DNA from: a virus
DNA length: 64,000 nucleotides
Direction: 5' to 3' (one strand)
IMG/VR virus record: IMGVR_UViG_3300043570_000570
Location: 52,183 to 116,182 of that record
The position numbers and the translations under genes are program-made. The number at the start of each line of letters is the position of its first letter. The stretch's first letter is position 1. Positions 11,897-52,457 of the stretch are shown here, piece by piece. Below the pieces are notes generated by a model. The model was not told the DNA's origin and made no database searches. It was given only the letters and a program-made list of their open reading frames with translations.

Positions 11897-12880
11897 TTAG
11901 TAAGTTACTGCTCCAGAGTATCCAGGAGCTATTATGTAGAGATTTAAAGTTCCTCCACTAGTTAAAGTAGAAGTTGTATGAGTGGAAACTCCAGGATACG
12001 TTCCTCTTACATTAGTAGCTGCGGCTTTGATAGCATTGTATTCAGTTAAAGTAAAGATACGTACATCAGGAGCTGTTCTCCATTTAGAAAATCTTCCTGC
12101 TTTTCTTGCAGCTACATAATACTTATCTGCTACAGAGATTATCTTGTCATCATTGACATCAAACATATGGAAAGATAAACCATTTCTACTAGTCTTATTT
12201 AAAACTACATTGGCTACTGCTTGAATATCTGTATTAGTGTAGGCTTGGATTCTAGTGGGAGCATTTACTTCTATATAATATTCTTTAGAAGGATCATAAG
12301 CTTCTGAAATCGAGTAGTAGCCAGCAGAGTTAGTATAGATTGTTTTGTAGAGAGCCCAAGAAGAAGTTGTAACTAAATACTCAAACTCTAGTACGTAAGC
12401 TAGATTGTTATTATTGTTTAGGTCATTCCATCTACCATTAGATACAAACTGTACATAGTCTTCATTACCTGAGTTGTTAGGTTCTCCACTGTTCCAGTTC
12501 TTATAAGAGTAAGTTTCTCCTGTTACCCATCTCCAAGTTCCTTCTGTTACTTCATCTGTTAAACCTATCCAGCCAGAAGGCCATAAAGCAAATAAAAAAC
12601 TTTGTTCTCCTGATGTTGTAATAGTTACTAAGTGACCACCCATATTAGAACAGTTAGTTCTAGCTGTAGTCCAAGTAGCACTACCTGTAGAACGGTAATA
12701 AGAGTGTCCTCCGTAGTTCTGTTGATTAGTGAATCCTGTAATGGTTTGGTTTGTTCTTCTGTAGAGCTTTATAGCCACATTAGAAGCACCAGAACCATTT
12801 GCATTATACAAGTATCCAGAGTAGGTAAATTGTGCACTCAGTGAGTTCACAAAGAAGAATAGAATAACAACCCATCTCAT
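11897..12880 (-). CDS. Exported C-type lectin protein with dockerin-like Ca-binding module
   Basis: Signal peptide LSA|Q; CTLD motifs GGHLVTI, WIGL, EPN, WND; DVNDDKIISVAD loop; no T9SS tail. Confidence 0.85.
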   Translation of the reverse strand: MRWVVILFFFVNSLSAQFTYSGYLYNANGSGASNVAIKLYRRTNQTITGFTNQQNYGGHSYYRSTGSATWTTARTNCSNMGGHLVTITTSGEQSFLFALWPSGWIGLTDEVTEGTWRWVTGETYSYKNWNSGEPNNSGNEDYVQFVSNGRWNDLNNNNNLAYVLEFEYLVTTSSWALYKTIYTNSAGYYSISEAYDPSKEYYIEVNAPTRIQAYTNTDIQAVANVVLNKTSRNGLSFHMFDVNDDKIISVADKYYVAARKAGRFSKWRTAPDVRIFTLTEYNAIKAAATNVRGTYPGVSTHTTSTLTSGGTLNLYIIAPGYSGAVTY

Positions 12881-14349
12881 ATTAATAACTTTGCTCCCAT
12901 TAAGATTTGAAAGTTAAGAATGTCTTGACCTGCAACATAAGTTCCTCCTCCTGTAATACCTAAGCCAAATGTCTTTGTCATTTTCCAGGTCAAATTTACA
13001 AAAGGAATTACAATCGGTTTAGCTTTAAATAAAGATTCTGTATAATACTTAGAATAAGGAGAATAAATACCAGCCATAATAACTGTAGCATCTATATGCT
13101 TAGTGAGTTTTCCTTTGTACATAAAACCTCCTATAACAATAGTAGAGATCATTTGTTCTCCATAGAGTTTACCGTAAGTTCCAGCAACTCCGTAAAGTGC
13201 TGTAAGATTCTTAATTGAATTTACTCTAACAAACAGAGCTGTGTTAGAGAAGGCTTTAGGCATCAGACTCATTCCATCTGATACTACACTAATGTGTTTA
13301 TGCCCTTTTTTGTTTGCTCCTATCCAAGAGCGTACGCATGAGATATTACCGATCTTAGCATTAAGCATGTAATCGGCTGAAAACCCAAGAGAAGAAGTAC
13401 CATCCCCTTTTACTCTTGTAAAGGAAGCAGTACCTCTTGCATCTTGTGCTCCATCAGACTTAGTCTGAATACCAACTAAATCACCAGTTACTAAGATCGC
13501 AGGCTTAGCAACTTCGGCTTTAGCTTTATTGGCTGCTTTCGCAGTACCACTAGACTGAGACTTTTGTTGCTCAGTCTTAGTTTCTTCTACTTTTTGTTCT
13601 GAGGGTTTCTCGGTTTGTACTTCCGTTTTTTCTTCGGTTTTACCACTACTTCCTGAGCCACTTCCGCTCCCACTGCTACCACTGGAGCTTCCACTACTGC
13701 TTCCGCTACTACTTCCACTACTGGAGCTGGAGCCACTGCTTCCTGAAGTACCATCTCCGCTGCTTCCTGAATTGGGATCTGGGGAATTTCCACTTGAGGT
13801 TCCTGAGGTTTCTGAGGAGTTAGATCCACCGTTTGTTTGTCCACTTTCTCCTGACGAGCTGCCAGAAGAATTAGAATTACTAGAGCTACTGCTAGTACGA
13901 TTCCGAGAGTTAGTTCGATTGTCATTGTTATTGGTTTTATTGTTGGTTCCTACGTTAGTCCCTGAAGAAGTACTTCCACCTACATCTACGTTAACACTTC
14001 CTACATTTGATATAGCCCCTAAGTTCATAACATTACTTACAATGTTTAAGGTCGCATTTGTAGTCGTGGTTGTTGTAGTGGTTACTCCAACTCCTTGACA
14101 GGGTGATGTATTTTTATACTTCAAATATACACTATTTATCCAACTATCAAATGTTCCGTCTGTTAATTCTGTATAAGAGAAAGTTTGGACCTGTCCATAG
14201 TAAGCAATTACTATAGGACTAGACATATTTGCGTTAATAAATTTTAATTCCTGCGTGCAAGGGTCTGTGTATGAATACATAAAGCTCTGACCTTTTAGGG
14301 ACAGAGCTAGTATGCAAAAGATTAATAATATTTTAGTTTTTAAATACAC
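12877..14349 (-). CDS. Exported protein with Ser/Gly linker and C-terminal beta-barrel-like domain
   Basis: Signal peptide LKG|Q, ~100 aa S/G/N low-complexity linker, ~200 aa of alternating amphipathic strands. Confidence 0.6.
   Translation of the reverse strand: MYLKTKILLIFCILALSLKGQSFMYSYTDPCTQELKFINANMSSPIVIAYYGQVQTFSYTELTDGTFDSWINSVYLKYKNTSPCQGVGVTTTTTTTTNATLNIVSNVMNLGAISNVGSVNVDVGGSTSSGTNVGTNNKTNNNDNRTNSRNRTSSSSSNSNSSGSSSGESGQTNGGSNSSETSGTSSGNSPDPNSGSSGDGTSGSSGSSSSSGSSSGSSSGSSSGSSGSGSGSGSSGKTEEKTEVQTEKPSEQKVEETKTEQQKSQSSGTAKAANKAKAEVAKPAILVTGDLVGIQTKSDGAQDARGTASFTRVKGDGTSSLGFSADYMLNAKIGNISCVRSWIGANKKGHKHISVVSDGMSLMPKAFSNTALFVRVNSIKNLTALYGVAGTYGKLYGEQMISTIVIGGFMYKGKLTKHIDATVIMAGIYSPYSKYYTESLFKAKPIVIPFVNLTWKMTKTFGLGITGGGTYVAGQDILNFQILMGAKLLI
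13587..13925 (-). CDS. Candidate overprinted membrane-anchored protein nested in 12877..14349
   Basis: Alternative frame, same strand: N-terminal TM helix, E/V/P/A-rich stalk, basic tail KPKKKRKYKPR; A-rich leader AATAAAACCAATAACA-ATG. Confidence 0.45.
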   Translation of the reverse strand: MTIELTLGIVLAVALVILILLAARQEKVDKQTVDLTPQKPQEPQVEIPQIPIQEAAEMVLQEAVAPAPVVEVVAEAVVEAPVVAVGAEVAQEVVVKPKKKRKYKPRNPQNKK

Positions 14350-15022
14350 CTGCCTTAATGAGATTTTGAATCACATTAGTACAAGCAGTTTCTAGAGACT
14401 TTCTGGTAGCTTTACCGACAGTACTTTGAGAAAATTTCATATCGTCAAGAGACTTTAAGAAAGATTCGCCTATCTTTTGTGATTCGCCTTCTCCAGATCC
14501 AATGTATATCTGACCTGTCTTTGCGTCAACAAAACGGACTTGTAAGCGAATAAAGGTAGTGACAGCAACTTTTGACTTAAGACCTTCAGCTTGCTCGTCT
14601 TCATCAACAGCAAAATCAGCCACAGTAACATACACAAAATAGTGAGCAGGTTTAATCTTACCTTTTCCATCAATGGGTTCATCAAATACACCTTTCTTTG
14701 AAGCTTTGAACTGAGTCACCATCCTCTCCTTGATTTCAGCCTTCTCCTCAGTAAATACAAAACGATTTGTTTCATCTAAATAGTCTAATACGGATTCTGC
14801 AAAACCTAAGCCTACGTTCTTTTCCTGTAAAGCAGGATACAAACTTAAGACTTTTGTCATGTCTACACTAACTACTTGAACTGTTTTTTTAATAGAATCT
14901 GTATAACCAGATACACTAGAGATGTCCTTAGATACTACAGGCTCATCATCTGTGGTTGTTTTCATACTACCACAACCAAACAATACAACAGTCAATAACA
15001 GACTACCAAGGCTCTTCATCAT
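14333..15022 (-). CDS. CsgG/HfaB-family outer-membrane lipoprotein
   Basis: Likely start MMKSLGS (15022); lipobox LFG|C; L.ETNRFVFTE, VRFVDAKTGQI and GEGE motifs of CsgG-like proteins. Confidence 0.8.
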   Translation of the reverse strand: MMKSLGSLLLTVVLFGCGSMKTTTDDEPVVSKDISSVSGYTDSIKKTVQVVSVDMTKVLSLYPALQEKNVGLGFAESVLDYLDETNRFVFTEEKAEIKERMVTQFKASKKGVFDEPIDGKGKIKPAHYFVYVTVADFAVDEDEQAEGLKSKVAVTTFIRLQVRFVDAKTGQIYIGSGEGESQKIGESFLKSLDDMKFSQSTVGKATRKSLETACTNVIQNLIKAGVFKN

Positions 15023-15314
15023 CTGGCTTTGGTTTAGTTGCTGGAGCAGGAGCAGCTGCAGGAGCAGCCTTCTCTTTAATAATGACAGTGTTACCACCAC
15101 CAGTATTTGCTTGTTGCTTTTGTTCGTTGTTCGTAGTGATGTTAATCACAGGTGCAGGGGCTGCTACAGCAGTTGGAGTTTCTGGCTTTTCATCTTCGCC
15201 ACCACCTAAGTGAGTAGCAAACCAAGCACCTCCTGCTGTAACAGCAGTGGTGATTGCTCCAATGATTGTTTTTTTGATAGCGGACATACCGCTTTCTTCT
15301 TTTTCTTCTGACAT
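15003..15314 (-). CDS. Small single-TM Pro/Ala-rich protein
   Basis: Likely start MSEEKEE (15314); stop overlaps the CsgG-like start. Confidence 0.65.
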   Translation of the reverse strand: MSEEKEESGMSAIKKTIIGAITTAVTAGGAWFATHLGGGEDEKPETPTAVAAPAPVINITTNNEQKQQANTGGGNTVIIKEKAAPAAAPAPATKPKPDDEEPW

Positions 15315-15318
15315 GATA

Positions 15319-15669
15319 TTATGAATTAGTTGTGTTTGATAGTGATTCTCCGTCTTCCTCATCGACCTTCTGTATTAACATCTTGTCTCTGTCTTCAGAG
15401 TTAAACCAATAGTCAACTACTTTGTTTAAGTTACCTACAAAGGCACCCAAGAGAATAAGTAGCAATTCTTTCCAGTCTTCTCCAATAGAAGCTCCCATAA
15501 ATACTGCTGCATTGATTCCAAGAATAATTAAAGTAAACAAACCTAACACAATAGCGGTAATTTTCCAACGATTGGCTTGCATTTGTTGTAGCATGTAGTA
15601 GAACCTGTTTTTAGGATCTACTGCTACTGGTTCTGCTTGGGTAAGACCAAGTGCTTTTTTTATGTTCAT
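15319..15669 (-). CDS. Two-TM inner-membrane protein
   Basis: Two hydrophobic helices; ATGA overlap with the upstream gene. Confidence 0.7.
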   Translation of the reverse strand: MNIKKALGLTQAEPVAVDPKNRFYYMLQQMQANRWKITAIVLGLFTLIILGINAAVFMGASIGEDWKELLLILLGAFVGNLNKVVDYWFNSEDRDKMLIQKVDEEDGESLSNTTNS

Positions 15670-17567
15670 TTTTGTACAATTATTTTAGAATGTAATACTT
15701 CTGTCTCAGTAGTTACAGAAAGAATATAAACGCCATCAGAGAGACGATCTAGGTTTGCACTATACTTGTACTTACCTGCGGGCATACGTTGTTTTAAAAG
15801 AGTCTCTATGCGTCTTCCTACCTCATCTGAGATAGCCATGTCTACGTTAGAGTCTTCTTTAATCTTGAATTGGACTTGGATGTTTCCTTCTGTAGGGTTA
15901 GGGAATACTATAATAGAGTTTAAGTCGTTAAGCGAAATAGTTCCTTTGTTGACTCTACGAACTTCAATGATTCCCATAGCAGGAGTAATGTTCATATCCT
16001 TAGAGTCTTTATCTCCTACGTATTTAGCACCTGTCCACAAAGCTGCACTTGCCCAAGAGTCTTGGGGTTTTTTAGCAATGAACTGAACTTTAAAAGCTTG
16101 TTCTCCATCGTTAAGCATGTTCTCGTTAGTTAAGTCAGCACCTCCCCAAGAAACCATTCCATTAGAAGGGTTCATGTAGGTAGTCCACTTCATCATCTTT
16201 TCAGAGTTCTCAATACCTTTAAACTCTAAGTAAGCTGTGTCGTACCTAAGATCTAACTGTAATGCACCTAAGTTCTTTCCGTTAGTCAAAACTTTAACAG
16301 GAACGTTAACTAGGTTTCCTTCTTCTACACTTACTTTAGGCATATTTACCTCAATAGTTTCTGCAGGGAAATCATAACTTACAGTTTCGTCAATAATGTA
16401 ACGCTTTGCGTTAGCTTGATTAGTAATTTTAATAGGAGTCAAACGAGCCATCTTAAATCCTGTAGCATTGGCGTCTCCCTTAACAGCTACGTAGTAAGTG
16501 ATAGAATCATTACCATCTACACTGTAAGTAAAGTTATTTATAGTAGAGTATGTGGAGGTCAAGTTAGATGTGGCGCCATTGATTGCATTGTATTCAGCAA
16601 CTGTAAAGAACATTACGTCTTTTTTAGAGTTAGGCCATGCAGTAAATCTACCTGCCAATCTTCCGTAAACAGCGTATACGTCAGCAATAGAAATATCTCC
16701 AGTAGTTCCGTTTACATCCATTGTGTAGTAATCAAAGCCTGTAGGAGTGTATTGACCTAAGATAGATTGATTAATCTTCTGTGCATCTGCAGTAGAGAAT
16801 ACATTACCTGGGATCATTGTGTCTCCTTTAACTACAATGCGTACATCCCAATAAGTAGTATCTAGGAATTTCTTAAACACAGTAACACCCAATGAGTTAG
16901 TCTTTTGTGAAGCAATCTGAGACCAAGTTGAAGAACCTTTAGCTCTCTTCTCTAAACTAACAGTTAAGTTCTTAGCATCTGTACCAGTTACGTTTTTAAA
17001 CTTAGTAGCAAAACGCAATACTTTCTGATTGAAACGTCCACCGTAAGAGTAAACTACCAAAGTAGTATCGTTACCCCAGTTAGTAGCAGCTCTGTTAGAG
17101 AATGACTTAACACCTGATACTTTTAAAGTCTTGATAGAATCTAAACTATTCCATACAGTTTCACCTGCGTGAGTAAAAGTCAAATCAAATGTAGCTCCGT
17201 TAGAATAGTTAAAAGTAGAACTAGATCCTGTGTAAGCCAAAGTAACTGTCAAGAATCCTTGTAGGTTACTATCTACATACTGAAGGTATTGATCAGAAGC
17301 AGAAATCTTAAGAGAAGGCACAACTCCTGTAAAAGCAGTCTTATCATAGAATACACGGAATTGCATACCTGTAATCTTCTCTGAAGTAGAAGTATTGTAG
17401 AAATGCAGAGGAGCAACTGTTTGACCTACAGTAGTTGTTGCTACTTGATAGCCTGAGTCAATTACTACCCAGTGACCTGTACCTGGAGAGGTAGCAGAAG
17501 ATTGTGCTGATGCATTGCCAACCAACAATGTGAGCACTCCGATGAGGACTTTGATTATTTTATTCAT
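15666..17567 (-). CDS. Cohesin-CnaB-like-dockerin-cohesin protein with T9SS type A C-terminal sorting domain
   Basis: Signal peptide ASA|Q; cohesin-like ITGMQFRVFYD and VNVPVKV...LGALQLDLRYD; dockerin-like STADA...DVNGTTGDISIAD; CTD VFPNP...GR...LSDGVYIL...KIIVQK. Confidence 0.85.
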   Translation of the reverse strand: MNKIIKVLIGVLTLLVGNASAQSSATSPGTGHWVVIDSGYQVATTTVGQTVAPLHFYNTSTSEKITGMQFRVFYDKTAFTGVVPSLKISASDQYLQYVDSNLQGFLTVTLAYTGSSSTFNYSNGATFDLTFTHAGETVWNSLDSIKTLKVSGVKSFSNRAATNWGNDTTLVVYSYGGRFNQKVLRFATKFKNVTGTDAKNLTVSLEKRAKGSSTWSQIASQKTNSLGVTVFKKFLDTTYWDVRIVVKGDTMIPGNVFSTADAQKINQSILGQYTPTGFDYYTMDVNGTTGDISIADVYAVYGRLAGRFTAWPNSKKDVMFFTVAEYNAINGATSNLTSTYSTINNFTYSVDGNDSITYYVAVKGDANATGFKMARLTPIKITNQANAKRYIIDETVSYDFPAETIEVNMPKVSVEEGNLVNVPVKVLTNGKNLGALQLDLRYDTAYLEFKGIENSEKMMKWTTYMNPSNGMVSWGGADLTNENMLNDGEQAFKVQFIAKKPQDSWASAALWTGAKYVGDKDSKDMNITPAMGIIEVRRVNKGTISLNDLNSIIVFPNPTEGNIQVQFKIKEDSNVDMAISDEVGRRIETLLKQRMPAGKYKYSANLDRLSDGVYILSVTTETEVLHSKIIVQK

Positions 17568-23294: not shown

Positions 23295-23870
23295 TTACTT
23301 CTGAAACCTCAGATAATCTGTAGTACCTGGATCTTCGTTCTTGAAATAATAGACTTCCTTTACTTTACCGTACTTGATAGTCTTTAAAAATCCATCAGGG
23401 ATAGTAGCTCCTGTTGGTAATCTTAAGCTAGTTTTAGAGTAGACCATCTTGATCTCTACCTCAACACTCTGACTCTTAGAAAGCTCTCTTTCTCTTACTT
23501 CTAATAGTCTCCAAGCTCCTCTGTTTAACTTCTCGTGCTGAAGAACACAGTTAAGGTAAGAAAAGGTTTGCCATAAGGTAGGTCTATCACAGTTAAAATC
23601 AGCTGCTGGAGCACAATGTCCCTTATCCCATACATTTCCTTCATAGTCTTTTCCGTCTGAAGTCTTAATAGAGTCGTTAGTGTAGAAGTCCATTCCCTTT
23701 CTAGGATAAGAACCCAAGGGACATTGGACAATGTACCAAACTCGCTTAGGCTGTTGTAAGATCTCTGAGTAAACACAAGAGTATATAGGAGTCTTTACAA
23801 AGACAGAGTCTCTCTGAGAGTAACTAGTACCTAGTACTAGAAAACTTAAAATAAAAAGTAATTGTTTCAT
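23295..23870 (-). CDS. Exported DNA/RNA non-specific endonuclease (NucA/EndoG family)
   Basis: Signal peptide SYS|Q; DKGH active site, TF.YLN, Q...LNRG.W..LE, IPDGF. Confidence 0.9.
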   Translation of the reverse strand: MKQLLFILSFLVLGTSYSQRDSVFVKTPIYSCVYSEILQQPKRVWYIVQCPLGSYPRKGMDFYTNDSIKTSDGKDYEGNVWDKGHCAPAADFNCDRPTLWQTFSYLNCVLQHEKLNRGAWRLLEVRERELSKSQSVEVEIKMVYSKTSLRLPTGATIPDGFLKTIKYGKVKEVYYFKNEDPGTTDYLRFQK

Positions 23871-23897
23871 TGTTTAATTTTTTAGTTGTTTCATTGT

Positions 23898-24065
23898 TTA
23901 ATTAAAAGTGTTTCTGTCTTTCTTAGCAAACGCTTGATCTATAAAAAAAGTTAGACCAAACATAATAATAATAGTCATTGCTGCATTAAAGACGCTTACA
24001 ACATACATCTCTGCTTCTTTAGAAGTTTCTACTACTGATAGTAACGTGGATAAAATTAGTGTCAT
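23898..24065 (-). CDS. Small membrane protein (55 aa)
   Basis: MTLILSTLL...NAAMTIIIMFGLTFFID; ATGA-coupled to the upstream stop; not in ORF track. Confidence 0.55.
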   Translation of the reverse strand: MTLILSTLLSVVETSKEAEMYVVSVFNAAMTIIIMFGLTFFIDQAFAKKDRNTFN

Positions 24066-24646
24066 TTTTTTGAGTCTTTTGAATCTTTTGAATCTTTGGA
24101 GTCTTTTGAATCTGTCATGTGTTTAACTCCCATTATTGTTCCGATAATAGAAAAACAGTTGGTTAGAATAATACCAAACATATTACTCCAGGTACTCTCG
24201 ATGATCTTAGAGTCTAGTCCTCTGCTTAGTACGAAAAGATAAAGTACAGTAGTAAGTATACAAACAGCACCTACAGCTCCCAAAGCTACCTTTACTATCA
24301 AACCAATAAGCTCAAACTGGGTTTTTTTCTGAAGTGTTTCTAAATCATCAACTGCCAATTCTCTCAACTTCTCAGACTCAGACAAAGCCTGCTTTAGTTC
24401 AAGCATTAGTTTTTCTTTCTCTGCTTGGCTCTCTATTAGGTCTTTGTTCTGGGACTGTACTTGCTTAGTTACTTCTAGTCTTTTTCTACGAGTGTCTTGG
24501 TCTTTGGTCTTAGCCTCGTCTAAGTAGTCTTGAAAGTTTTTATCCTGAGTTTTTACTACCTTAAGTAAGTTTCCCTCTAATGCAATCTTCTTAGATTTGT
24601 AGAGGGAGACAAGAGAGCTTTCAATATCTTTACCAAAGGATATCAC
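24062..24646 (-). CDS. Coiled-coil plus two-TM membrane protein in the two-component operon
   Basis: GTG start abutting the receiver stop; C-terminal (KDS)n tandem repeat. Confidence 0.7.
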   Translation of the reverse strand: MISFGKDIESSLVSLYKSKKIALEGNLLKVVKTQDKNFQDYLDEAKTKDQDTRRKRLEVTKQVQSQNKDLIESQAEKEKLMLELKQALSESEKLRELAVDDLETLQKKTQFELIGLIVKVALGAVGAVCILTTVLYLFVLSRGLDSKIIESTWSNMFGIILTNCFSIIGTIMGVKHMTDSKDSKDSKDSKDSKK

Positions 24647-25084
24647 TTACTTATATACTTTAAAGGAAGCAGTTTTATTCTTATACCCCTCATAGTCCTT
24701 ACGAAAAGATTCTAGTCTAGGTTCAATCTCATCTGACTTGATGATCCAGAACTGAGCACCTACAGCTTTTGCTTTTTCTATTTCTTGTTTATCATCAGAA
24801 CTAGAAATAATCCCTATCACCACTCCGTTGCCGTACTCAAAGTTAATCTTACGAATCAACTCTATGCCGTCAAAAGAAGAACCAATAATATTAAGGTCTA
24901 CAAAAACGCATTCAGGTCTTTCATCTGCAGGTCCTTCAACAAACCATCTCTTAAACAATCTATCAGCTTCATCAGAAGAAGTTAGAGTTTGCAGAGAAAG
25001 AGTAATGTCTAATAAGCTACAAGAATCCTCAAACACTAAGTGAAAAAGGTCTTCGTCATCTACGAGTAATATTGAGTCTATCAT
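24647..25084 (-). CDS. Single-domain response regulator (CheY-like receiver)
   Basis: ILLVDDE, phospho-Asp in VFVDLN, DGIEL, ISSS, GA..WIIK; no output domain. Confidence 0.9.
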   Translation of the reverse strand: MIDSILLVDDEDLFHLVFEDSCSLLDITLSLQTLTSSDEADRLFKRWFVEGPADERPECVFVDLNIIGSSFDGIELIRKINFEYGNGVVIGIISSSDDKQEIEKAKAVGAQFWIIKSDEIEPRLESFRKDYEGYKNKTASFKVYK

Positions 25085-25091
25085 ATTTTGT

Positions 25092-26294
25092 TTATTTTAC
25101 TTTTATCTTAAGTTTAGTTCCTGTTTCTGGTTCTTCTAGTTTCTCAGCTGTTACTTCAAACTTATGTTCTTCCATAATAGCTGTACATATGTTTAACCCT
25201 AGTCCTGTACCTGCCTCTGTCTGACCTTCTTTCCTCTTATAAGGCTTAGACCACTGTACAAAATCTTCCTGAGACATTCCCCTTCCATTATCTTCAATAA
25301 CTAAAAAATTCCCTTCAGCAAAAATACGTACTAACTTAGTGCTAGAGTCGTTATATTTTAAACCGTTTCTTATTAAATTATCAATCGCTGTACAGAACAA
25401 AGATTCGTTTACTTCAATCTCAGGTAACTCTTCAATAACTACTTGCTTCTCGTAAGAAGTAGAAGATAGGTAGCTGTGTAGAATGTCTTTTAGATTGTGT
25501 TGCTGAACCTCTAAGTGAGCATCTTGCTTAACCAAGTTAGTAAACTCTTTAACTCCGTTATAAACCTTTTGAGTGTGAATCAATCCTTCTGTAATCATTC
25601 TTAGCGGAGCATCTATCTTTAACTCTTTAATCTGCTCTTCAGTCAGTCTTCTTTTTAAGGAAGAAAGTCCCCTAGGAATATAAGTGTTAATTCCTGAGTG
25701 CATATCATGTCTTAAAATCTTAGCAGCATGTTCCAAATAGGAATTCTTTTTAGCAACCTCTGCCTCAATTCTCTTTTTCTCAGTAATCTCCGTAGCAATT
25801 AAAAGAATTTTATAAACCTCTCCGTAAGGATCTTTAATAGGATTGAAGTTTCCATAAAGCCAAGTATTGCCAAACTCATACTCTCCTTGCTTGAAATAGC
25901 CTATTCTTAAATGTGTCCAGAACTCTAACCAATCTCTCTTAGAAGAGTTGTCTAACTCCCTATGACTTTTAACCTCACCAAATATTCGCTTAAACCTGTC
26001 ATTCATACTTAACACTTCTCCATAAGTATCAAACTCTACTAGTAAGTTAGAATTATTAATTGCTTTAAAAGTAGCATCTACACTCTGAAACTTATACCTA
26101 GCTCTCCTTACAAACTCTATAGCAGGATAAAAGAAAAAAGGTAAAAACCCTACTATACACCAATACCCTACTAAATCCCGCTGGTAACTAGAATCTGTGT
26201 ACTTGAAAACAATAGCACTCTGAAAACTTAAATAAGCCAACATTATCACAGAAGCAATAACAACTGATACCTTAGACCTTATACTTAGTTTCAT
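25092..26294 (-). CDS. Membrane sensor histidine kinase (2 TM, PAS/PAC-like, HisKA, HATPase)
   Basis: H-box LRHDM, N-box NLIRNGLKY, G1 EDNGRGM, G2 GTGLGL. Confidence 0.92.
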   Translation of the reverse strand: MKLSIRSKVSVVIASVIMLAYLSFQSAIVFKYTDSSYQRDLVGYWCIVGFLPFFFYPAIEFVRRARYKFQSVDATFKAINNSNLLVEFDTYGEVLSMNDRFKRIFGEVKSHRELDNSSKRDWLEFWTHLRIGYFKQGEYEFGNTWLYGNFNPIKDPYGEVYKILLIATEITEKKRIEAEVAKKNSYLEHAAKILRHDMHSGINTYIPRGLSSLKRRLTEEQIKELKIDAPLRMITEGLIHTQKVYNGVKEFTNLVKQDAHLEVQQHNLKDILHSYLSSTSYEKQVVIEELPEIEVNESLFCTAIDNLIRNGLKYNDSSTKLVRIFAEGNFLVIEDNGRGMSQEDFVQWSKPYKRKEGQTEAGTGLGLNICTAIMEEHKFEVTAEKLEEPETGTKLKIKVK

Positions 26295-26367
26295 CTTTTA
26301 AAGTTAATTGGATGACACAAATATAAGCTAACTTTAAATAAATCAAAGTCTTGTCTCTGAAAACTTA

Positions 26368-26570
26368 TCTCCCCAAAATTTTTAGACCCCCCATCCCAAA
26401 ATTTCTCCCAAAATTTTTTCTAAAATTTTTAGACCCCTAAAATTTTTTATGTTCATAGGAGGGTGGGACCAAAATTTTATACCCCCGTCAACTTGATTAT
26501 ATCTATATGAGGGTGGGGGACACCAATTTAACATACCCCATCCCAAAATTGGCGCTAGGGGTACCCCCTA
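26368..26570. repeat. Repeated CC(C)AAAATTT(T) / C-tract cluster at the late/early strand switch
   Basis: Several AAAATTT units, two AAAATTTTTAGACCCC, two CCCCATCCCAAAATT and G/C runs in a divergent intergenic region. Confidence 0.6.
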
Positions 26571-26590
26571 TAAAACGCTATAAAAAAAAT

Positions 26591-26914
26591 ATGAAAACAA
26601 ATCTAGACTTCGATGGTAAGACAATCAATGAGATTGGCTTAGAAATGACAAATGTGTTTCGTACACAAGGTGCAACAAAGGCTCCAGGCTTCAACATTCT
26701 CACGGGTGAGAAAGATGAACAAGGCAAAGAGCAAGTGGTGTTTGTTTGGTTGAGTAAGAATTTGAATGCTCAATGGGAAGATGAACGCTTTAAAACGGTT
26801 GCTGGCAACTCAGTGGTTCTTGAAGTAACCTTCAAGGAAACAGGGCATAAGGCACTTGTTTGTTGTACTCCTCAAATCCGCAACAAAATGGCGGATGCAG
26901 AAGTGTGGGATTAA
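26591..26914 (+). CDS. First early-region protein, hypothetical
   Basis: Likely start MKTNLDF after an A-run (ORF-track start 26507 lies within the repeats). Confidence 0.65.
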   Translation: MKTNLDFDGKTINEIGLEMTNVFRTQGATKAPGFNILTGEKDEQGKEQVVFVWLSKNLNAQWEDERFKTVAGNSVVLEVTFKETGHKALVCCTPQIRNKMADAEVWD

Positions 26915-27307
26915 CCCACACTTTGTGGGACAAAGGGTAACTTAACTGTTTAACCTTGCCATTTTACTGTGCATTCTTCTCATTTATCTATGAAATGATA
27001 GTTTTTTTGGTCTCAGCCCGGTAAATAACGAGACAAGACTAAAGAATTCTATCATTTTATGGTATATATGTAGTGGTAAATAGTGGGGAATCACTCCCTT
27101 CAATCTTCTATTTATCACTTAAAAGTGGGTAATTGTGGGGTTGACATGGTACGTTATGAATAATTTGTTGTTCTTATGTTAAATTAGACAACTATTAACC
27201 TCTATAACCTCATTACCCTGTCTTATGCTTTTCTCTTATCTTCTCTTACGTAGTAATCATCATTAGCCTGATGATTCCTTAACTGATTCTAAGCGAACTT
27301 TACGCTT

Positions 27308-27369
27308 GGTCGACTATGCGACCTTAAATAGCCTTTAGGCATAGTGCGTCACTATATGAGTGGGTATGG
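27308..27369 (+). ncRNA. Pistol self-cleaving ribozyme
   Basis: P1 GGTCG/CGACC, loop ACTATG pairing with CATAGT (pseudoknot), TTAAATAG linker, GCG, P3 TCACT/AGTGG, GT cleavage site 27364-27365; P2 (CCT/ATGG) imperfect. Confidence 0.8.
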
Positions 27370-27524
27370 AAACAATAATTAAAGAGTATTACTTAACTGA
27401 AGGAAGTAAGTTAGTAAATTATAGCATAGGTACTAATGGTGTTGATTGTTGGTTTGATACTAATGATATTAGACAACACAGATGTTTATCTATTGAAGAT
27501 TTTGAACTTATTAAGGGGGCTTAA
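27366..27524 (+). CDS. Early mini-gene (52 aa)
   Basis: METIIKEYYL...LIKGA*; ATG lies in the pistol P2 strand. Confidence 0.6.
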   Translation: METIIKEYYLTEGSKLVNYSIGTNGVDCWFDTNDIRQHRCLSIEDFELIKGA

Positions 27525-27554
27525 TCGCCTCCTTTAAACTTTAATAAAAAGAAT

Positions 27555-27686
27555 ATGAAAACAATAGAACAAACAATTGATAGTTTAGAACAGCAAGTAA
27601 GAGATACATATCCTTCATGGAATAATGAAATGATTAGGTCTAAGGCTGTTAGAATGTATTATTTAAATGAAGAGTTGGGAGCTTAG
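27555..27686 (+). CDS. Early mini-gene (43 aa)
   Basis: MKTIEQTIDSLE...EELGA*, A-rich leader. Confidence 0.6.
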   Translation: MKTIEQTIDSLEQQVRDTYPSWNNEMIRSKAVRMYYLNEELGA

Positions 27687-27712
27687 TCTCCCTTTACTTT
27701 AACTAAACAAAT

Positions 27713-27862
27713 ATGAAAAACTATAGAGTCACCTACTATAATACAGAATATAGCATTAAGTCTATTTCTGTTATGGCTTTTACTCAAGAAGAAGCAAGAA
27801 CTTATGTATATAGTCACATAGAAGATTGTGTTCAAACACTCTCTGCTGAATATATATACTAA
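27713..27862 (+). CDS. Early mini-gene (49 aa)
   Basis: MKNYRVTYY...AFTQEEAR..., A-rich leader. Confidence 0.6.
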   Translation: MKNYRVTYYNTEYSIKSISVMAFTQEEARTYVYSHIEDCVQTLSAEYIY

Positions 27863-27867
27863 ACATT

Positions 27868-27969
27868 ATCAAAGAGTAGTAACACTGCATGTAAACTGGT
27901 TATCCTTGATTACAGTATGCAGACCTTTACATAGTAAATCAAGCTATGTTATGTATTGGACTCTTTGAT
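27868..27969 (+). ncRNA. Unassigned three-way-junction RNA with kissing loops
   Basis: 10-bp closing stem and two inner hairpins whose loops CTTGATT/AATCAAG are complementary. Confidence 0.55.
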
Positions 27970-28114
27970 TACTTTAATGCATCATAACCTACTTCACAAG
28001 GGTAGGCAGTTGTAATAACAGTATAGAGTCTGGAGAACCAAGCGTAAGCTGGACATAGGTAGTTCTCATGAAGCTGCGGAAGCTACTATTACAACTGAAT
28101 GCAGAGTGAAGTAA
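27969..28114 (+). ncRNA. Twister ribozyme (type P1, long P5 insertion)
   Basis: P1 TTACTT/AAGTAA, TAA cleavage loop 27975-27977, P2 TGCA/TGCA, P4 CCTAC/GTAGG with TCACAAG loop, 3' GAGTG (CAC/GTG pseudoknot), 11-bp P5 28007-28017/28087-28097. Confidence 0.85.
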
Positions 28115-28211
28115 ACTACAAGGTATGGTATATCCTACTAACACGTCTAGAGGACCTTGTAGTTCTTTTATACCTAAGGGTATTATACCAACTAGTATAA
28201 ACTAAACAGAT

Positions 28212-28424
28212 ATGAAGAAATTTATAATATTCTCTACGTTAAGTCAAGCAAAGAATTACATTAAGCGTAATCTTCCCACCTATAACCATGATGATGGATG
28301 TGGGTGTTGCTATAGTTATTCTTATCCTTTAATACAGGGTAAGCGTATTGTCTATGTTAATAGTTATTCTAACATGGGTAATCCAACTACTGAAGTAACT
28401 GTCATTGGCAGATACAAAAGATAA
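28212..28424 (+). CDS. Early hypothetical protein (GCGCC motif)
   Basis: 70 aa, A-rich leader. Confidence 0.6.
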   Translation: MKKFIIFSTLSQAKNYIKRNLPTYNHDDGCGCCYSYSYPLIQGKRIVYVNSYSNMGNPTTEVTVIGRYKR

Positions 28425-28581
28425 ACACTCTACTGGCTATAGAGTGTATAAAATGTCGTGATTGGCCACACGTCAAGGCAAATGAAGATGTCTTTGAAAC
28501 ACAAAGATGTTTCTAAAGGGGATTAGTGAACTAATGATCTAATCCCTCATCTTTTTTAACTAATTAACTAATTAAAAAAAT

Positions 28582-28809
28582 ATGAAACTACTTATACATT
28601 TTGGGAAGTCACTGTTGATGATAGTGATCCCTATTGCTTTTGCTGTTGTGTCTTCTATTATTATAAGCGCAATGTTCGCCTGTGTTTCTGTTCTTATGGG
28701 ACATAACACTTTCTTTAACTCTTTTCAAGCATTAATAGCCAATGTCACCTTTGTGATGTCTATTATTACCTTGATTATGTGGCTTATCTATCAATCTAAT
28801 GAACTTTAA
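28582..28809 (+). CDS. Small two-TM membrane protein
   Basis: Hydrophobic 75 aa. Confidence 0.6.
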   Translation: MKLLIHFGKSLLMIVIPIAFAVVSSIIISAMFACVSVLMGHNTFFNSFQALIANVTFVMSIITLIMWLIYQSNEL

Positions 28810-28822
28810 ACCAAACAAAAAT

Positions 28823-29026
28823 ATGAAAATTAAACCGTCCACATTCTTACTTGTCATCGCTGTATGTGCAGGTATGGTATTTATCATGGCTCTTCCTGAT
28901 GTTATTAGTAGCATGGGAACACAAGCCTTTACTTATGTGTTTACTACAGAAGTTTTAACTTTATGTTTACTTACAGTAGTAGGACACTTTTATCTTAAGT
29001 CTCTTAAAGAAGAAGGTAATGATTAA
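28823..29026 (+). CDS. Small two-TM membrane protein
   Basis: Likely start MKIKPST after an A-rich leader. Confidence 0.55.
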   Translation: MKIKPSTFLLVIAVCAGMVFIMALPDVISSMGTQAFTYVFTTEVLTLCLLTVVGHFYLKSLKEEGND

Positions 29027-29169
29027 TCAACAAGTACTAAGCGTTATGAAGCCTAGAATCCCTTCAGGTAAAATCCTTGCAAGAGGATATGACAAAGAAG
29101 GTAGATTAATTATGGTAAGACTTAATAGTGCTGGCTTTAAAGGCTGGCACTTTCTCTAAAACTAAAACT

Positions 29170-29367
29170 ATGAACTACGATTCAATTCAAGATGAGCTTA
29201 CAGAACTCTATCAAGAGTTAAATGCTGCAGAAAATGACTTACATATTTCTTGTAAGTCATCTCTTTTATTAGATTCAGGAGAAGAAAACTGGGTACGAGA
29301 TCAACAACGTTTAATTGCTGCTCTGCGTGCTAAAATTCAATCTTTAACTATTTTAATATCAAAGTAA
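29170..29367 (+). CDS. Hypothetical coiled-coil protein
   Basis: Likely start MNYDSIQ. Confidence 0.55.
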   Translation: MNYDSIQDELTELYQELNAAENDLHISCKSSLLLDSGEENWVRDQQRLIAALRAKIQSLTILISK

Positions 29368-29458
29368 TGGAAAAACAATTATTTATCATTGACGGCTACA
29401 GAATCTGGGCTTTGACCTATGAAGATGCTTATGCTAACTACTTAGTAATTTCAAGACT

Positions 29459-29635
29459 ATGAAACCAGAAAATCCTTTTAGCGAAAGTACGGCCTTCAAA
29501 GCCCTTGTATGGTTCTCTTTAATAACTGTAATTTGCATTTGTTTAGAGAGTTGTGCAACTTCTAAAAATGTACCACATGGTTGTGGTAAAAAATCTAAGC
29601 GTTACTATCACGGAGAATTCCTAGAATATAGATAA
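29459..29635 (+). CDS. Small putative lipoprotein (58 aa)
   Basis: Hydrophobic stretch then LES|C; ATGA-coupled to a 31-aa ORF at 29367..29462. Confidence 0.5.
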   Translation: MKPENPFSESTAFKALVWFSLITVICICLESCATSKNVPHGCGKKSKRYYHGEFLEYR

Positions 29636-29642
29636 CCTTAAT

Positions 29643-29714
29643 GTCCCTTTCGTCTATTGGTAGGACAGCAGGATTTCATCCTGTTAAAGGTGTGTTCGAT
29701 TCACCCAGGGGATA
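29643..29714 (+). tRNA. tRNA-Glu (TTC), slightly degenerate, no encoded CCA
   Basis: Acceptor GTCCCTT/AGGGGAT, D arm, anticodon stem GCAGG/CCTGT with loop ATTTCAT, GTTCGATTC T-loop with one stem mismatch. Confidence 0.8.
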
Positions 29715-29729
29715 CTAAACTAACTAACT

Positions 29730-30044
29730 ATGAAAAAACTGTTCTTAATCTTAATCGTATGTGGCTTCAGTAATCTGAAAGCCCAACTATTCCCTATTAA
29801 AAGTCTAGAAGGTATGATGCCTCTTACTTTATCCGATACAATGTTTGTAGAGGATCTAATAGGCGAAGGAAAACATCCTTCACCTAAAGTTTTAAATTGC
29901 TTTGTCTTTAAATTCTCTGAATGGAACTACGTTATAACATATAAGCTAACAGATCGTGATCAGCTATATATTATTAAGGATGGTTACATAGGAGATATTT
30001 ACATATTCAAGGATAACAAAGTAGAAATACTTAGAGAAGATTAA
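29730..30044 (+). CDS. Exported hypothetical protein
   Basis: Signal peptide LKA|Q. Confidence 0.6.
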   Translation: MKKLFLILIVCGFSNLKAQLFPIKSLEGMMPLTLSDTMFVEDLIGEGKHPSPKVLNCFVFKFSEWNYVITYKLTDRDQLYIIKDGYIGDIYIFKDNKVEILRED

Positions 30045-30098
30045 ATTAGATTAAACATTAAACAAACAAACTAAAAACAAAAAACTAAAAACAAAATT

Positions 30099-30722
30099 AT
30101 GACTTACGAAGATTTCAAATCAACAAACCTTGCTTTTGCTAGTAAAGCCTTCCGCAACTCTGGTATCAAAGCACCAATTACTGTTATGTTCGAGTGTTAT
30201 ACTCCTGCTAACCTATCTGTTCACCAACGTATGATTAGCCGTGGTCTTGGTGGTAATTTAACCAACCGTATGACTGCTCTATTAAACTTCACAGAAGAAA
30301 ACTTCAACAGCGACTTTGGTCAGTTTGGAATTAACGCTGATGATGTAACTGGTGATTATTCAACAGCTATTCCTGTTAACGTAAACACTTCTCAGTTGTA
30401 TGGTGAAGACTTAATCCTTCGCAGGGTAGATACTACTGATTCTGCTATTGTAAGCAATCCTGATGGTTCTATTAAGCCTCAGTGGTCTATTAAGACTGTT
30501 AATGGTCAAGAATTGACTTTTGAAGGTGCTCTTATCTACACTACTGTAGAGTTTGCTGAGCCAGGTATGTCTAACGCTACTATTAAGCAAGATCAAAACT
30601 TGTCTCGTAGTATTACTAATATGTCTAGTGGTGCTTCTATTGGTGCTCTTAAGGAAAATAAGGCTCCTAAAGCAAAAGTAACAGAAGAAGTACTTGCTGA
30701 TAATACACAAGCAGCATTCTAA
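30099..30722 (+). CDS. Likely highly expressed hypothetical protein (possibly nucleic-acid binding)
   Basis: 207 aa, biased codons, long AAAAC leader, C-terminal F. Confidence 0.55.
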   Translation: MTYEDFKSTNLAFASKAFRNSGIKAPITVMFECYTPANLSVHQRMISRGLGGNLTNRMTALLNFTEENFNSDFGQFGINADDVTGDYSTAIPVNVNTSQLYGEDLILRRVDTTDSAIVSNPDGSIKPQWSIKTVNGQELTFEGALIYTTVEFAEPGMSNATIKQDQNLSRSITNMSSGASIGALKENKAPKAKVTEEVLADNTQAAF

Positions 30723-30892
30723 TTAACAAGGCCATAAACTAATAATTATTTATTATTGGTCTTAAGTCAGGATAGATTAGCGTTTATCCTGACTACCAAG
30801 AACTAACAAACGTTAGTTATCTTAAACTATTGCTGAACTCACACTATAGTTTTTCATATTTTCTATATTAAAGCAATCATATCTGTTAGGGT

Positions 30893-30925
30893 AAAAAGGG
30901 GAAGAGTGTGAGCTTCCCTTTTTTT
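30893..30925 (+). terminator. Intrinsic terminator whose loop is complementary to an upstream 8-mer
   Basis: AAAAAGGGGAAG-agtgtgag-CTTCCCTTTTTTT. Confidence 0.75.
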
Positions 30926-30977
30926 ATTACTTTATTGCTTTAATTTATCTCGAACCTAATAATTAAACCTATACAGA

Positions 30978-31352
30978 ATGAGAAAAAGAATTATCAAAGC
31001 AGAAAAAGTGTACTCAGCTAGTCCTGAGTTTCCTATCAATGTACTTCCTATTCAAGGAAGGACTAAGCGATTTATCTCTAAAAAACTAGAGAGAGTTAGA
31101 GAAGTTGAAATCAGTAACATGTTTAAACATCTCACCATTGACTCTATCTTAGATGAGAAAAGGTATTTAAAGACCTTAACTCAGCTTCCTACTAAACAAA
31201 CTATCATTCCTGTAAGGGAAGAAGTAGTTGTACCTCAAGACTACGAAGTAATACCAGACATTGTTCTAGGTAATATTAGAGTAGGTAAAAACTATCTTAA
31301 GACTTTTATTGAGCGACTTGAAGTTGTATCAGTAATTGATTGGCAAGACTAA
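30978..31352 (+). CDS. Hypothetical protein
   Basis: 124 aa. Confidence 0.55.
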   Translation: MRKRIIKAEKVYSASPEFPINVLPIQGRTKRFISKKLERVREVEISNMFKHLTIDSILDEKRYLKTLTQLPTKQTIIPVREEVVVPQDYEVIPDIVLGNIRVGKNYLKTFIERLEVVSVIDWQD

Positions 31353-51809: not shown

Positions 51810-52457
51810 ATGTTAAAGAGAACAGCAACAAAAAAGATTCCAGTCAAAGGAATACCTGAACCTAAGGAAATTCAAAAGCCTTGTTCAGACTGTGGGAAGG
51901 TAAAAGCCATAGCCAACAAAACAAAGAGGTTATGTGCTACGTGTGTAATGAAGGACAAGAAAGAAAAGCAGAAAGTCCGTAAAGAGATTAAGCGTAAATT
52001 AGAAAAAGAAACAATCAGTCAAAGTAAACTAGACCAGATAACTTCTTGGTTAGTTAGAGGAGCACATATTAATAAATGCCATGCTTGTGAAATCACACTA
52101 GATCCTAAAGGACTACAGTGTGCTCACTTTGTAGGTAGAACTAAGGTTGCTACTCGCTACCACCTAACTAATCTTTTGCCTGCTTGTCCTAGATGTAATC
52201 TATATACTCCTCACCACGTGTGGAACTTAGGTAAGTCTTTAAACAGGATATGGGGAACTGATACTACGGAAGATATGCTACAGCTTTCTAATAAGATTTT
52301 AAAATTAAGTAACTACGATAGAAAACTTATCTATGACGTTTATAGAACCTGCCTTACAGATATCGAACAAGGAAACTATAGCCAAGATCAGAAGTATCAA
52401 AAGTTACACCAAGCACTGAAGGATTATAACAAGATAGTGGAACCCTTATTAAAATGA
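51810..52457 (+). CDS. NinG/Rap-like Zn-finger HNH endonuclease
   Basis: CxxC pairs, QCAHFVGR...TRY...N...C..CN. Confidence 0.78.
   Translation: MLKRTATKKIPVKGIPEPKEIQKPCSDCGKVKAIANKTKRLCATCVMKDKKEKQKVRKEIKRKLEKETISQSKLDQITSWLVRGAHINKCHACEITLDPKGLQCAHFVGRTKVATRYHLTNLLPACPRCNLYTPHHVWNLGKSLNRIWGTDTTEDMLQLSNKILKLSNYDRKLIYDVYRTCLTDIEQGNYSQDQKYQKLHQALKDYNKIVEPLLK

Follow-up and report, generated by a model that had tools for sequence, protein, structure and literature searches.

A pistol ribozyme predicted to cut one nucleotide before the start codon of a small phage gene, and its recurrence before unrelated genes

What does a self-cleaving ribozyme do when it ends on a start codon, so that the codon is itself a strand of the catalytic fold? 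The question is raised by a locus in the IMG/VR virus record IMGVR_UViG_3300043570_000570, of which positions 52,183 to 116,182 were analyzed. This stretch of 64,000 nucleotides (nt), referred to throughout as the window, makes up the right-hand end of the record, which spans 116 kb and has a CheckV completeness of 98%; the window encodes a portal protein, a large terminase, and a family-A DNA polymerase. On its plus strand, a pistol ribozyme runs into an open reading frame (ORF) for 52 amino acids (aa), and the predicted cut, G27364/U27365, lies 1 nt before ATG 27366. No biological role has yet been assigned to pistol ribozymes, nor to most other self-cleaving ribozymes of bacteria and phages; recurrence of the fusion makes the role of pistols directly testable, its geometry predicting that cleavage would yield a message beginning 5'-HO-U-AUG and release a start codon held in the ribozyme.

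A preliminary description of the window had proposed a pistol with all of its elements in order, and each of those elements was recovered. The Rfam model RF02679 (Pistol) matches 27308-27369 on the plus strand with 47.8 bits, against a gathering score of 34.5, and the match spans model positions 1-68, the full length. The model alignment also bears out the proposal that the scissile G and U are followed directly by ATG 27366 and that this ATG contributes the 3' strand of the P2 helix. The copy is the sole pistol that an Rfam scan detects in the whole 116-kb record, and a hand-made pattern of the pistol core has one match in the window and none in 100 shuffles. Beyond the pistol, a scan of 26200-31000 with Rfam (E up to 1) returned just a tRNA-Glu and an L20-leader match, the latter dismissed as chance level (20.9 bits versus a cut-off of 58.7; E 0.99). 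All of the core nucleotides are present in the window, namely the AAA linker, the A-G, UUAGG, GCG, and the G-U, and they are invariant or nearly so in an alignment, A2, of 21 pistols, 16 of which are of the AUG type described here. At the scissile site, the G column of A2 is nearly invariant and the U column is invariant. G27346, within GCG, corresponds to G40 of env25, for which a general-base role has been described together with the role of A32 (PMC5408937). Judged by sequence and model alignment, the element is confirmed as a bona fide pistol ribozyme (Table 1).

Table 1. Features of the pistol locus on the plus strand, in window coordinates; codes beginning with L are related loci.
Feature	Position	Strand	Basis or remark
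Leader hairpin AAUCAUCA / UGAUGAUU, 6-nt loop	27255-27276	+	Read from sequence
Hairpin AAGCG-N7-CGCUU, abutting P1 directly	27291-27307	+	Conserved in six 'type A' loci
Pistol P1 hairpin, GGUCG (27308-12) with CGACC (27319-23)	27308-27323	+	Rfam alignment
P1 loop ACUAUG, 6 nt, pseudoknot 5' strand	27313-27318	+	Pairs perfectly with CAUAGU 27340-45 (6 bp)
Conserved linker UUAAAUAG	27324-27331	+	A19-A21, A23, and G24 invariant in A2
P2 5' strand CCU(U)	27332-27335	+	One nt shorter than CCAU of L013 and L123
UUAGG junction, pseudoknot 3' strand CAUAGU (27340-45), GCG (27346-48)	27335-27348	+	Invariant columns in A2
P3 hairpin UCACU AUAUG AGUGG, 5 bp, immediately 5' of the scissile G-U	27349-27363	+	Rfam alignment
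Predicted scissile G-U	27364-27365	+	Model positions 63-64 in Rfam alignment
AUGG, start codon plus G, also P2 3' strand	27366-27369	+	Rfam alignment; relatives
52-aa ORF, conserved small protein family (GVDCWF..RQHRC)	27366-27524	+	60 clusters; Met-1; dN/dS
8-bp hairpin with stop codon UAA (27522-24) in loop, then UUUAAACUUUAA	27513-27534	+	Read from sequence
Two further small ORFs, 27555-27686 (43 aa) and 27713-27862 (49 aa), between the predicted cuts	27555-27862	+	ORF list
Twister-like element	27969-28114	+	17 distinct copies in related loci; covariation
Twister-like parts: P1 UUACUU with AAGUAA, predicted cut U27975/A27976-A, P2 UGCAU with AUGCA	within 27969-28114	+	
Twister-like parts: P4 CCUAC with GUAGG and loop UUCACAAGG, long P5 stem with insert, then GA-GUG	within 27969-28114	+	

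The AUG on which the ribozyme ends opens what is, by comparative analysis, a real gene. The 52-aa product has 60 homologous protein clusters (E down to 4e-27), mostly of 50-54 aa, and the family alignment contains 13 invariant columns (GVDCWF, HRC, and others), with Met-1 kept in at least 90% of sequences. Comparison of the window ORF with 14 homologous loci gave ratios of nonsynonymous to synonymous substitution rates (dN/dS) of 0.13-0.45 for 13 of the pairs, the closest pair having diverged too little for an estimate. Because of an in-frame TGA at 27357-59, the start can only be GTG 27360, inside P3, or ATG 27366, and homologues that lack any ribozyme start at a Met aligned with ATG 27366. 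No match in Pfam or PHROG was found for this ORF, its neighbors, or six other ORFs that follow a pistol in the same way.

The fusion recurs before genes of other families. A scan for the pistol core pattern followed by GGTATG, verified on known copies, yielded 23 viral contigs and 12 genome contigs. True pistols account for 16 of the 23 viral matches: 14 were run through Rfam, scoring 46-69 bits, and L129 and L131 are identical to L123. The other seven (L122, L124, L130, L132, L135, L136, and L142) were rejected as chance matches in coding DNA. Among the genome contigs, the P1, pseudoknot, and P3 of a pistol were recognized by eye in L257, L261, and L263, and a motif script passed L257 and L263. 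The AUG right after the scissile G-U opens an ORF of 50-150 codons in 10 families, the window's included, that are mutually unrelated by BLASTP; eight families besides the window's have Rfam-confirmed pistols, and two more (L257 and L263) were identified by the motif script only. In the L133 and L138 pistols, the corresponding AUG is no start. Overall, the AUG opens at least 50 codons in 10 of 12 contexts, compared with 5 of 70 frames after ordinary pistols (Fisher p = 8e-8). Fusion of one lineage to the starts of 10 unrelated ORF families, at this level of significance, supports a coupling between pistol and start codon that is not accidental. Related contigs bearing the fusion are freshwater phage contigs, and the window has no DNA similarity to deposited phages in INPHARED. 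The first 12 nt past the cut, ATGGAAACAATA (encoding M-E-T-I), are identical in three otherwise unrelated ORFs, those of the window (27366-27377), L126/L141, and L134/L139; the module they have in common may thus reach as far as the fourth codon.

Covariation indicates that the fold is maintained across these contexts. In A2, 94.5% of cells are paired and 18 of 20 pairs have changed on both sides, a result reached in none of 500 shuffles. Pairing amounts to 99% in P1, 99% in the pseudoknot, and 94% in P3, where it is accompanied by covariation; changes on both sides affect four of the five P1 pairs and all six pseudoknot pairs. Two pistol sub-lineages, which differ in P1, pseudoknot, and P2, both keep the AUG fusion.

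P2, the helix that contains the start codon, is paired in 79% of A2 cells. A perfect form, CCAU:AUGG, is present in L013 and L123, and the L013 copy fixes the register such that the CCU ahead of the conserved UUAGG junction in the window is one base shorter; the proposal that P2 is 1 nt short is upheld by this comparison. The Rfam register contains two nonstandard pairs of four, and the best register consists of CC:GG plus U.U or U-A, with a calculated duplex energy with AUGG of -0.4 kcal/mol versus -1.9 kcal/mol for CCAU. The 5' strand takes the forms CCAU, CCU, and (G)CAU in the lineage. CCU is the commonest, found in 8 of the 16 AUG-type copies beside differing P3 stems and differing ORFs, and in the other sub-lineage P2 is merely CAU:AUG (3 bp). 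The further suggestion that a short P2 reduces activity is unsupported: because CCU is the commonest form and stands next to freely covarying P3 stems, the shortness is probably tolerated, and a very short P2 would thus appear to be the norm of this lineage and not a defect.

Conservation of the fusion was also assessed for the 52-aa gene itself, in 7 viral and 49 metagenome loci encoding its relatives. Pistols scoring above the cut-off end exactly on the ATGG of this family in L011, L012, L013, L014, L015, L016, and L019. A different pistol in L022 leaves 19 nt before the same ORF, and a pistol in L009 leaves about 38 nt. Second pistols are found in L015 (1670-1730; 62.5 bits) and L016 (903-963; 60.8 bits), 10 nt past the stop of the pistol-AUG ORF, and one small gene is therefore bracketed by two pistols in these loci. 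The second copies leave an 18-nt A-rich leader ahead of the next ATG.

A candidate for a corresponding 3' boundary in the window is the element at 27969-28114, which resembles twister ribozymes. The 17 copies share an order of P1, U/AA, P2, a YC dinucleotide, and P4 with loop UU-NNN-AAGG, followed by a long P5 whose insert ranges from tens of nt to about 150 nt, then the P2 3' strand, GA, a triplet that pairs with NNN, and the P1 3' strand. By our own parse of these copies, paired cells number 77/102 in P1, 84/85 in P2, 85/85 in P4, 115/119 in P5, and 44/51 in the pseudoknot between loop and 3' segment (T1). This pseudoknot occurs in three covarying forms, CAC:GUG, CCA:UGG, and CCC:GGG, the last being the canonical twister form. 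Every parsed copy has UAA and GA. At the L2 dinucleotide the copies read UC or CC, for which the candidate partner in L4 is GG rather than GC. The resemblance to twister (reviewed in PMC5408937) extends to P1, the U/A-A site, P2, P4 with its U-NNN-AAG loop, the 3-bp pairing of that loop with L1, the optional P5, and the GA that holds the catalytic G. The element differs in that the conserved GC:GC of T2 reads YC:GG, in the length of the P5 insert, and in its failure to match Rfam models. The families considered were RF03160, RF02684, and RF03154. No Rfam twister model, twister-P3 included, matches in scans of 26200-31000 (E up to 1) or of the shortest copy, L261 (E up to 10), and RF03160 and RF02684 (twister-P1 and twister-P5) match nothing in the whole virus record at E up to 10. 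Since no Rfam model matches and the GC of L2 reads YC, the element is described as twister-like and is not filed as a member of the class.

Of the 18 informative pistol-AUG loci, 10 have a twister-like element beginning 7-30 nt past the stop, and 2 more have a second pistol at position +10. The twister-like element lies farther off in the window (444 nt) and in L014 (322 nt), after extra small ORFs. The predicted cuts bound 27365-27975 in the window, an RNA of 611 nt with up to three small ORFs; in L011, the closest relative, the RNA between them contains one gene and is about 170 nt long. The two additional ORFs of the window segment have no family match in Pfam or PHROG. A hairpin with the stop codon in its loop likewise follows the pistol-AUG ORFs of relatives; more broadly, the small ORFs each end in a G+C-rich hairpin of this type, followed by UUUACUUUAA or UUUAAACUUUAA (window 27513-27550 and 27677-27705, plus strand; L123 4125-4150; others). 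The UUACUU that follows the stop hairpin is the P1 strand of the twister-like element in relatives, and at the first two UUACUU copies in the window the remainder of the element is absent, as if only its first bases were left. On the reverse strand of L144, a pistol P1 is preceded without a break by the 5' half of a twister-like element (UUACUUUAAUGCACC, 25 nt before the pistol), an arrangement that looks like the insertion of one ribozyme into the other or a recombination between the two.

The 5' side of the locus is a long stretch with conserved hairpins. Minus-strand genes end at 26294 and the plus-strand run of very small ORFs starts at 27366, leaving about 1 kb of gene-poor DNA (26295-27307) between divergent arms; its last 330 nt hold hairpins that are conserved in position in six related, 'type A' loci. 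A hairpin of differing sequence occupies the same aligned place as 27255-27276 in L014, L123, and L137, and the hairpin next to P1 shows a G:C to A:U change in L137 and L140. Most pistol-AUG copies are preceded by 300-670 nt without an ORF. The 135-aa ORF at 26507-26914 has no homologue and no family match. A second type of conserved leader consists of a hairpin, (G)GCCAUUAUAUGGCU, and then AAnACAUUGAnUAAC. It immediately precedes the pistol in L126, L128, and L143; in L020, where no ribozyme is present, it immediately precedes the ATG of the ORF.

Initiation signals in the window point to a host that does not rely on Shine-Dalgarno (SD) pairing. An SD-like motif precedes just 2 of 62 long window ORFs, upstream regions are A-rich and G-poor, and no SD motif precedes ATG 27366. 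Bacteroidota lack SD sites, and their initiation is tuned by upstream adenines and low mRNA structure (PMC6847099); leaderless mRNAs also occur in this phylum (PMC9723704). A 633-aa protein of the window carries the C-terminal sorting domain PF18962 of the type IX secretion system (T9SS), at 44 bits versus a cut-off of 27. This secretion system is not known outside the Bacteroidota. The near absence of SD sites and the T9SS-tailed protein indicate that the host is probably a member of the Bacteroidota, and a related contig that was binned with a Chitinophagaceae genome points the same way. Among the starts of the window genes, ATG 27366 is an exception, with GAGUGGGU before it and its own bases paired in P2. 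Plain folding of the uncleaved RNA, which gives a structure other than the pistol fold, also leaves G27368-A27370 at least 90% paired, and the first 24 nt of the 3' cleavage product are predicted to be unpaired.

A mechanism that would account for this arrangement begins with a catalytically competent pistol as the 5' boundary of the first small gene in the rightward block of small ORFs, a block that is probably early given its position and the sizes of its ORFs. In the primary transcript, the start codon would be locked in P2 behind a leader that is G-rich, structured, and over 300 nt long. Self-cleavage at G27364/U27365 would remove that leader, upon which the weak P2 (2-4 pairs) would come apart to leave an mRNA beginning 5'-HO-U-AUG with an unstructured, A-rich start. 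We infer that cleavage occurs in vivo, that it releases the AUG, and that the product is translated early, by a leaderless-type route in a host, probably of the Bacteroidota, that does not use SD pairing. A second ribozyme, the twister-like element here or a second pistol in some relatives, would bound the 3' side, such that the two together excise a defined message, 27365-27975 in the window and a single gene in most relatives. As a whole, the proposal that cleavage by the ribozymes shortens the leader to 1 nt with a 5'-OH, frees a previously paired AUG for leaderless-type translation, and sets the 3' end has about an even chance of being correct.

Several observations weigh against it. In E. 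coli, translation of leaderless mRNAs depends on a 5' phosphate (Giliberti 2012, as cited in PMC11698992), and archaeal initiation complexes are weakened when the 5' phosphates are lost (PMC11698992); given this dependence, a 5'-OH end could be a poor template. The U retained after cleavage may, as we reason, supply the A of AUG with a 5' phosphodiester that substitutes for the 5' phosphate. In Flavobacterium psychrophilum, the leaderless fraction of mRNAs is only about 5.5% (PMC9723704). About 40 more distant relatives of the 52-aa ORF have plain A-rich leaders and no pistol, and the ribozyme is therefore dispensable for the gene. The window P2 itself has just two G-C pairs plus a mismatch. 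No convincing promoter was found, a sigma-70 scan giving matches at chance level and 26295-27310 containing no Bacteroidota TAnnTTTG box, and no phage RtcB or RNA ligase was found, a P-loop match being sub-threshold. Finally, pistols in general are, in the present sample, not drawn to starts, with a median gap of 22 nt past the upstream stop and 74 nt to the next start, and a general siting of the class just ahead of start codons was rejected (Wilcoxon p = 0.9). This lack of a start-codon pull on ordinary pistols makes the fusion a property of the present lineage and not of the class.

Of the other explanations, the one that best survives the evidence is that the ribozyme serves processing or insulation only. 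It would detach the message from a long structured leader RNA or from an upstream cistron, or set RNA stability through 5'-OH and 2',3'-cyclic phosphate ends; overlap with the AUG would be compaction, and the cut product would be poorly translated, with cleavage lowering expression or merely tolerated. Hammerheads and other ribozymes flanking phage genes have already been read as transcript punctuation (PMC3088659), ordinary pistols sit just past upstream stops and away from starts, the long, conserved, hairpin-rich leader could be a functional product, and Giliberti 2012, via PMC11698992, has 5'-OH leaderless RNAs as poor templates in E. coli. Compaction, however, gives no reason for a single pistol lineage to end precisely on AUG(G) ahead of 10 unrelated ORFs, in loci with hundreds of non-coding bases to spare upstream. 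In addition, the AUG of the uncleaved RNA is paired and lacks the A-rich context of every other gene, which would make the uncleaved form the worse template. Insulation alone is judged unlikely.

Less probable again, and quite doubtful, is an impaired or conditional ribozyme, in which a short P2 makes cleavage slow or dependent on a condition or factor and the element serves mainly, through its structure, to repress or time translation of the first early gene. Two G-C pairs plus U.U in P2 would fit such a role, and slow variants of phage hammerheads have been proposed to be conditional (PMC3088659). The distribution of CCU over half of the AUG-type copies in A2, with different P3 stems and different ORFs, argues against impairment, as does the CAU:AUG P2 of the other sub-lineage, which makes a very short P2 the norm; moreover, the nucleotides invariant in A2, including the equivalents of G40 and G53-U54, are all intact. 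Improbable to a similar degree, if slightly more so, is the extension of the leaderless-translation proposal in which the excised RNA, whose 5'-OH and 2',3'-cyclic phosphate ends are those of RtcB substrates, is circularized or end-healed by a host enzyme to give a ribozyme-made circular or end-protected phage mRNA, translated as a leaderless message in the SD-less host. Least probable is that pistol and leader form a mobile promoter-leader module, shuffled among phages with junctions at or just inside starts and with cleavage unlinked to initiation: nearly identical 'type A' leaders and pistols before different ORFs, and the shared ATGGAAACAATA, which would place junctions inside the first codons, favor such a cassette, but it accounts for the spread of the module and not for a ribozyme that ends on AUG, two distinct sub-lineages both keep the fusion, and it is compatible with, rather than exclusive of, leader removal by cleavage.

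Excision of a nearly leaderless message by two ribozymes, the explanation preferred here, has partial precedents. Pistols, their phage link, and ribozyme-flanked phage genes are already known. The element shares with the pistol class (RF02679; Weinberg 2015; Harris 2015, PMC4604425) its fold and core (P1, 6-bp pseudoknot, AAA linker, GCG, P3, and G-U). It differs from the class in that the P2 3' strand is a start codon, P2 comprises just 2-4 pairs, and the fusion stands before 10 unrelated ORFs. The closest natural precedent is the HHphage hammerhead of haloviruses HF1 and HF2 (Perreault 2011, PMC3088659), which also lies just upstream of the first ORF of an early, polycistronic transcript. 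Mapping placed the 5' end of that transcript within 3 nt of the cut (PMC3088659), implying that the ribozyme makes the mRNA 5' end. The HHphage ribozyme differs from the window pistol in its class and in belonging to an archaeal virus; 13 nt separate it from the start codon, which is no part of the ribozyme. Clustered prophage hammerheads (Perreault 2011, PMC3088659) resemble the present arrangement in flanking single phage genes, where they have been read as cutting transcripts into single-gene mRNAs. Here, by contrast, two classes are paired (a pistol on the 5' side and a twister-like element or pistol on the 3' side), with predicted cuts 1 nt before the AUG and roughly 15-40 nt past the stop. 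Ribozymes in the 5' untranslated regions of RNA viruses that infect fungi and plants (Lopez-Galiano et al., PMC13725137; bioRxiv 10.1101/2024.05.16.594327) offer a further parallel, because cleavage upstream of the ORF is required for or induces cap-independent initiation; those viruses have eukaryotic hosts, their motifs are of the hammerhead, hepatitis delta virus, or twister type, and no overlap with the start codon occurs.

The literature search found no paper on a pistol whose P2 is a start codon, on its recurrence before ten gene families, or on a 3' twister-like partner. In synthetic insulators of the RiboJ type, a ribozyme removes the 5' leader and makes expression independent of upstream context, and a hairpin and ribosome-binding site are kept after the cut. 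The lambda cI mRNA is leaderless, with AUG at its 5' end; it is a primary transcript with a 5' triphosphate and not a 5'-OH cleavage product. The fusion provides a natural, compact system for asking whether ribozymes define phage mRNA ends, bears on whether 5'-OH, near-leaderless RNAs are translated in Bacteroidota and whether excised RNAs are circularized, and supplies a covarying twister-like motif that current Rfam models miss.

Further features of the surrounding genome are outside the ribozyme-bounded segment. On the minus strand, 11897-17567 encodes unusual phage cargo that likewise suggests a Bacteroidota host: the 633-aa protein, which carries a cohesin domain as well as the T9SS sorting domain, and a C-type lectin domain protein of 327 aa. 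Also on the minus strand, 23295-26294 encodes a phage two-component pair, made up of a histidine kinase with a HATPase_c match of 48.9 bits and a receiver domain that stands alone (29.9 bits, slightly below the cut-off), followed by a DNA/RNA non-specific endonuclease (67.7 bits). The possibility that this neighboring kinase is a polynucleotide kinase was rejected, as it is the histidine kinase. A tRNA-Glu(UUC) lies among the small ORFs at 29643-29715 on the plus strand, and a related contig carries an Rfam 'freshwater-1' RNA (L123 8602-8663; 84.4 bits).

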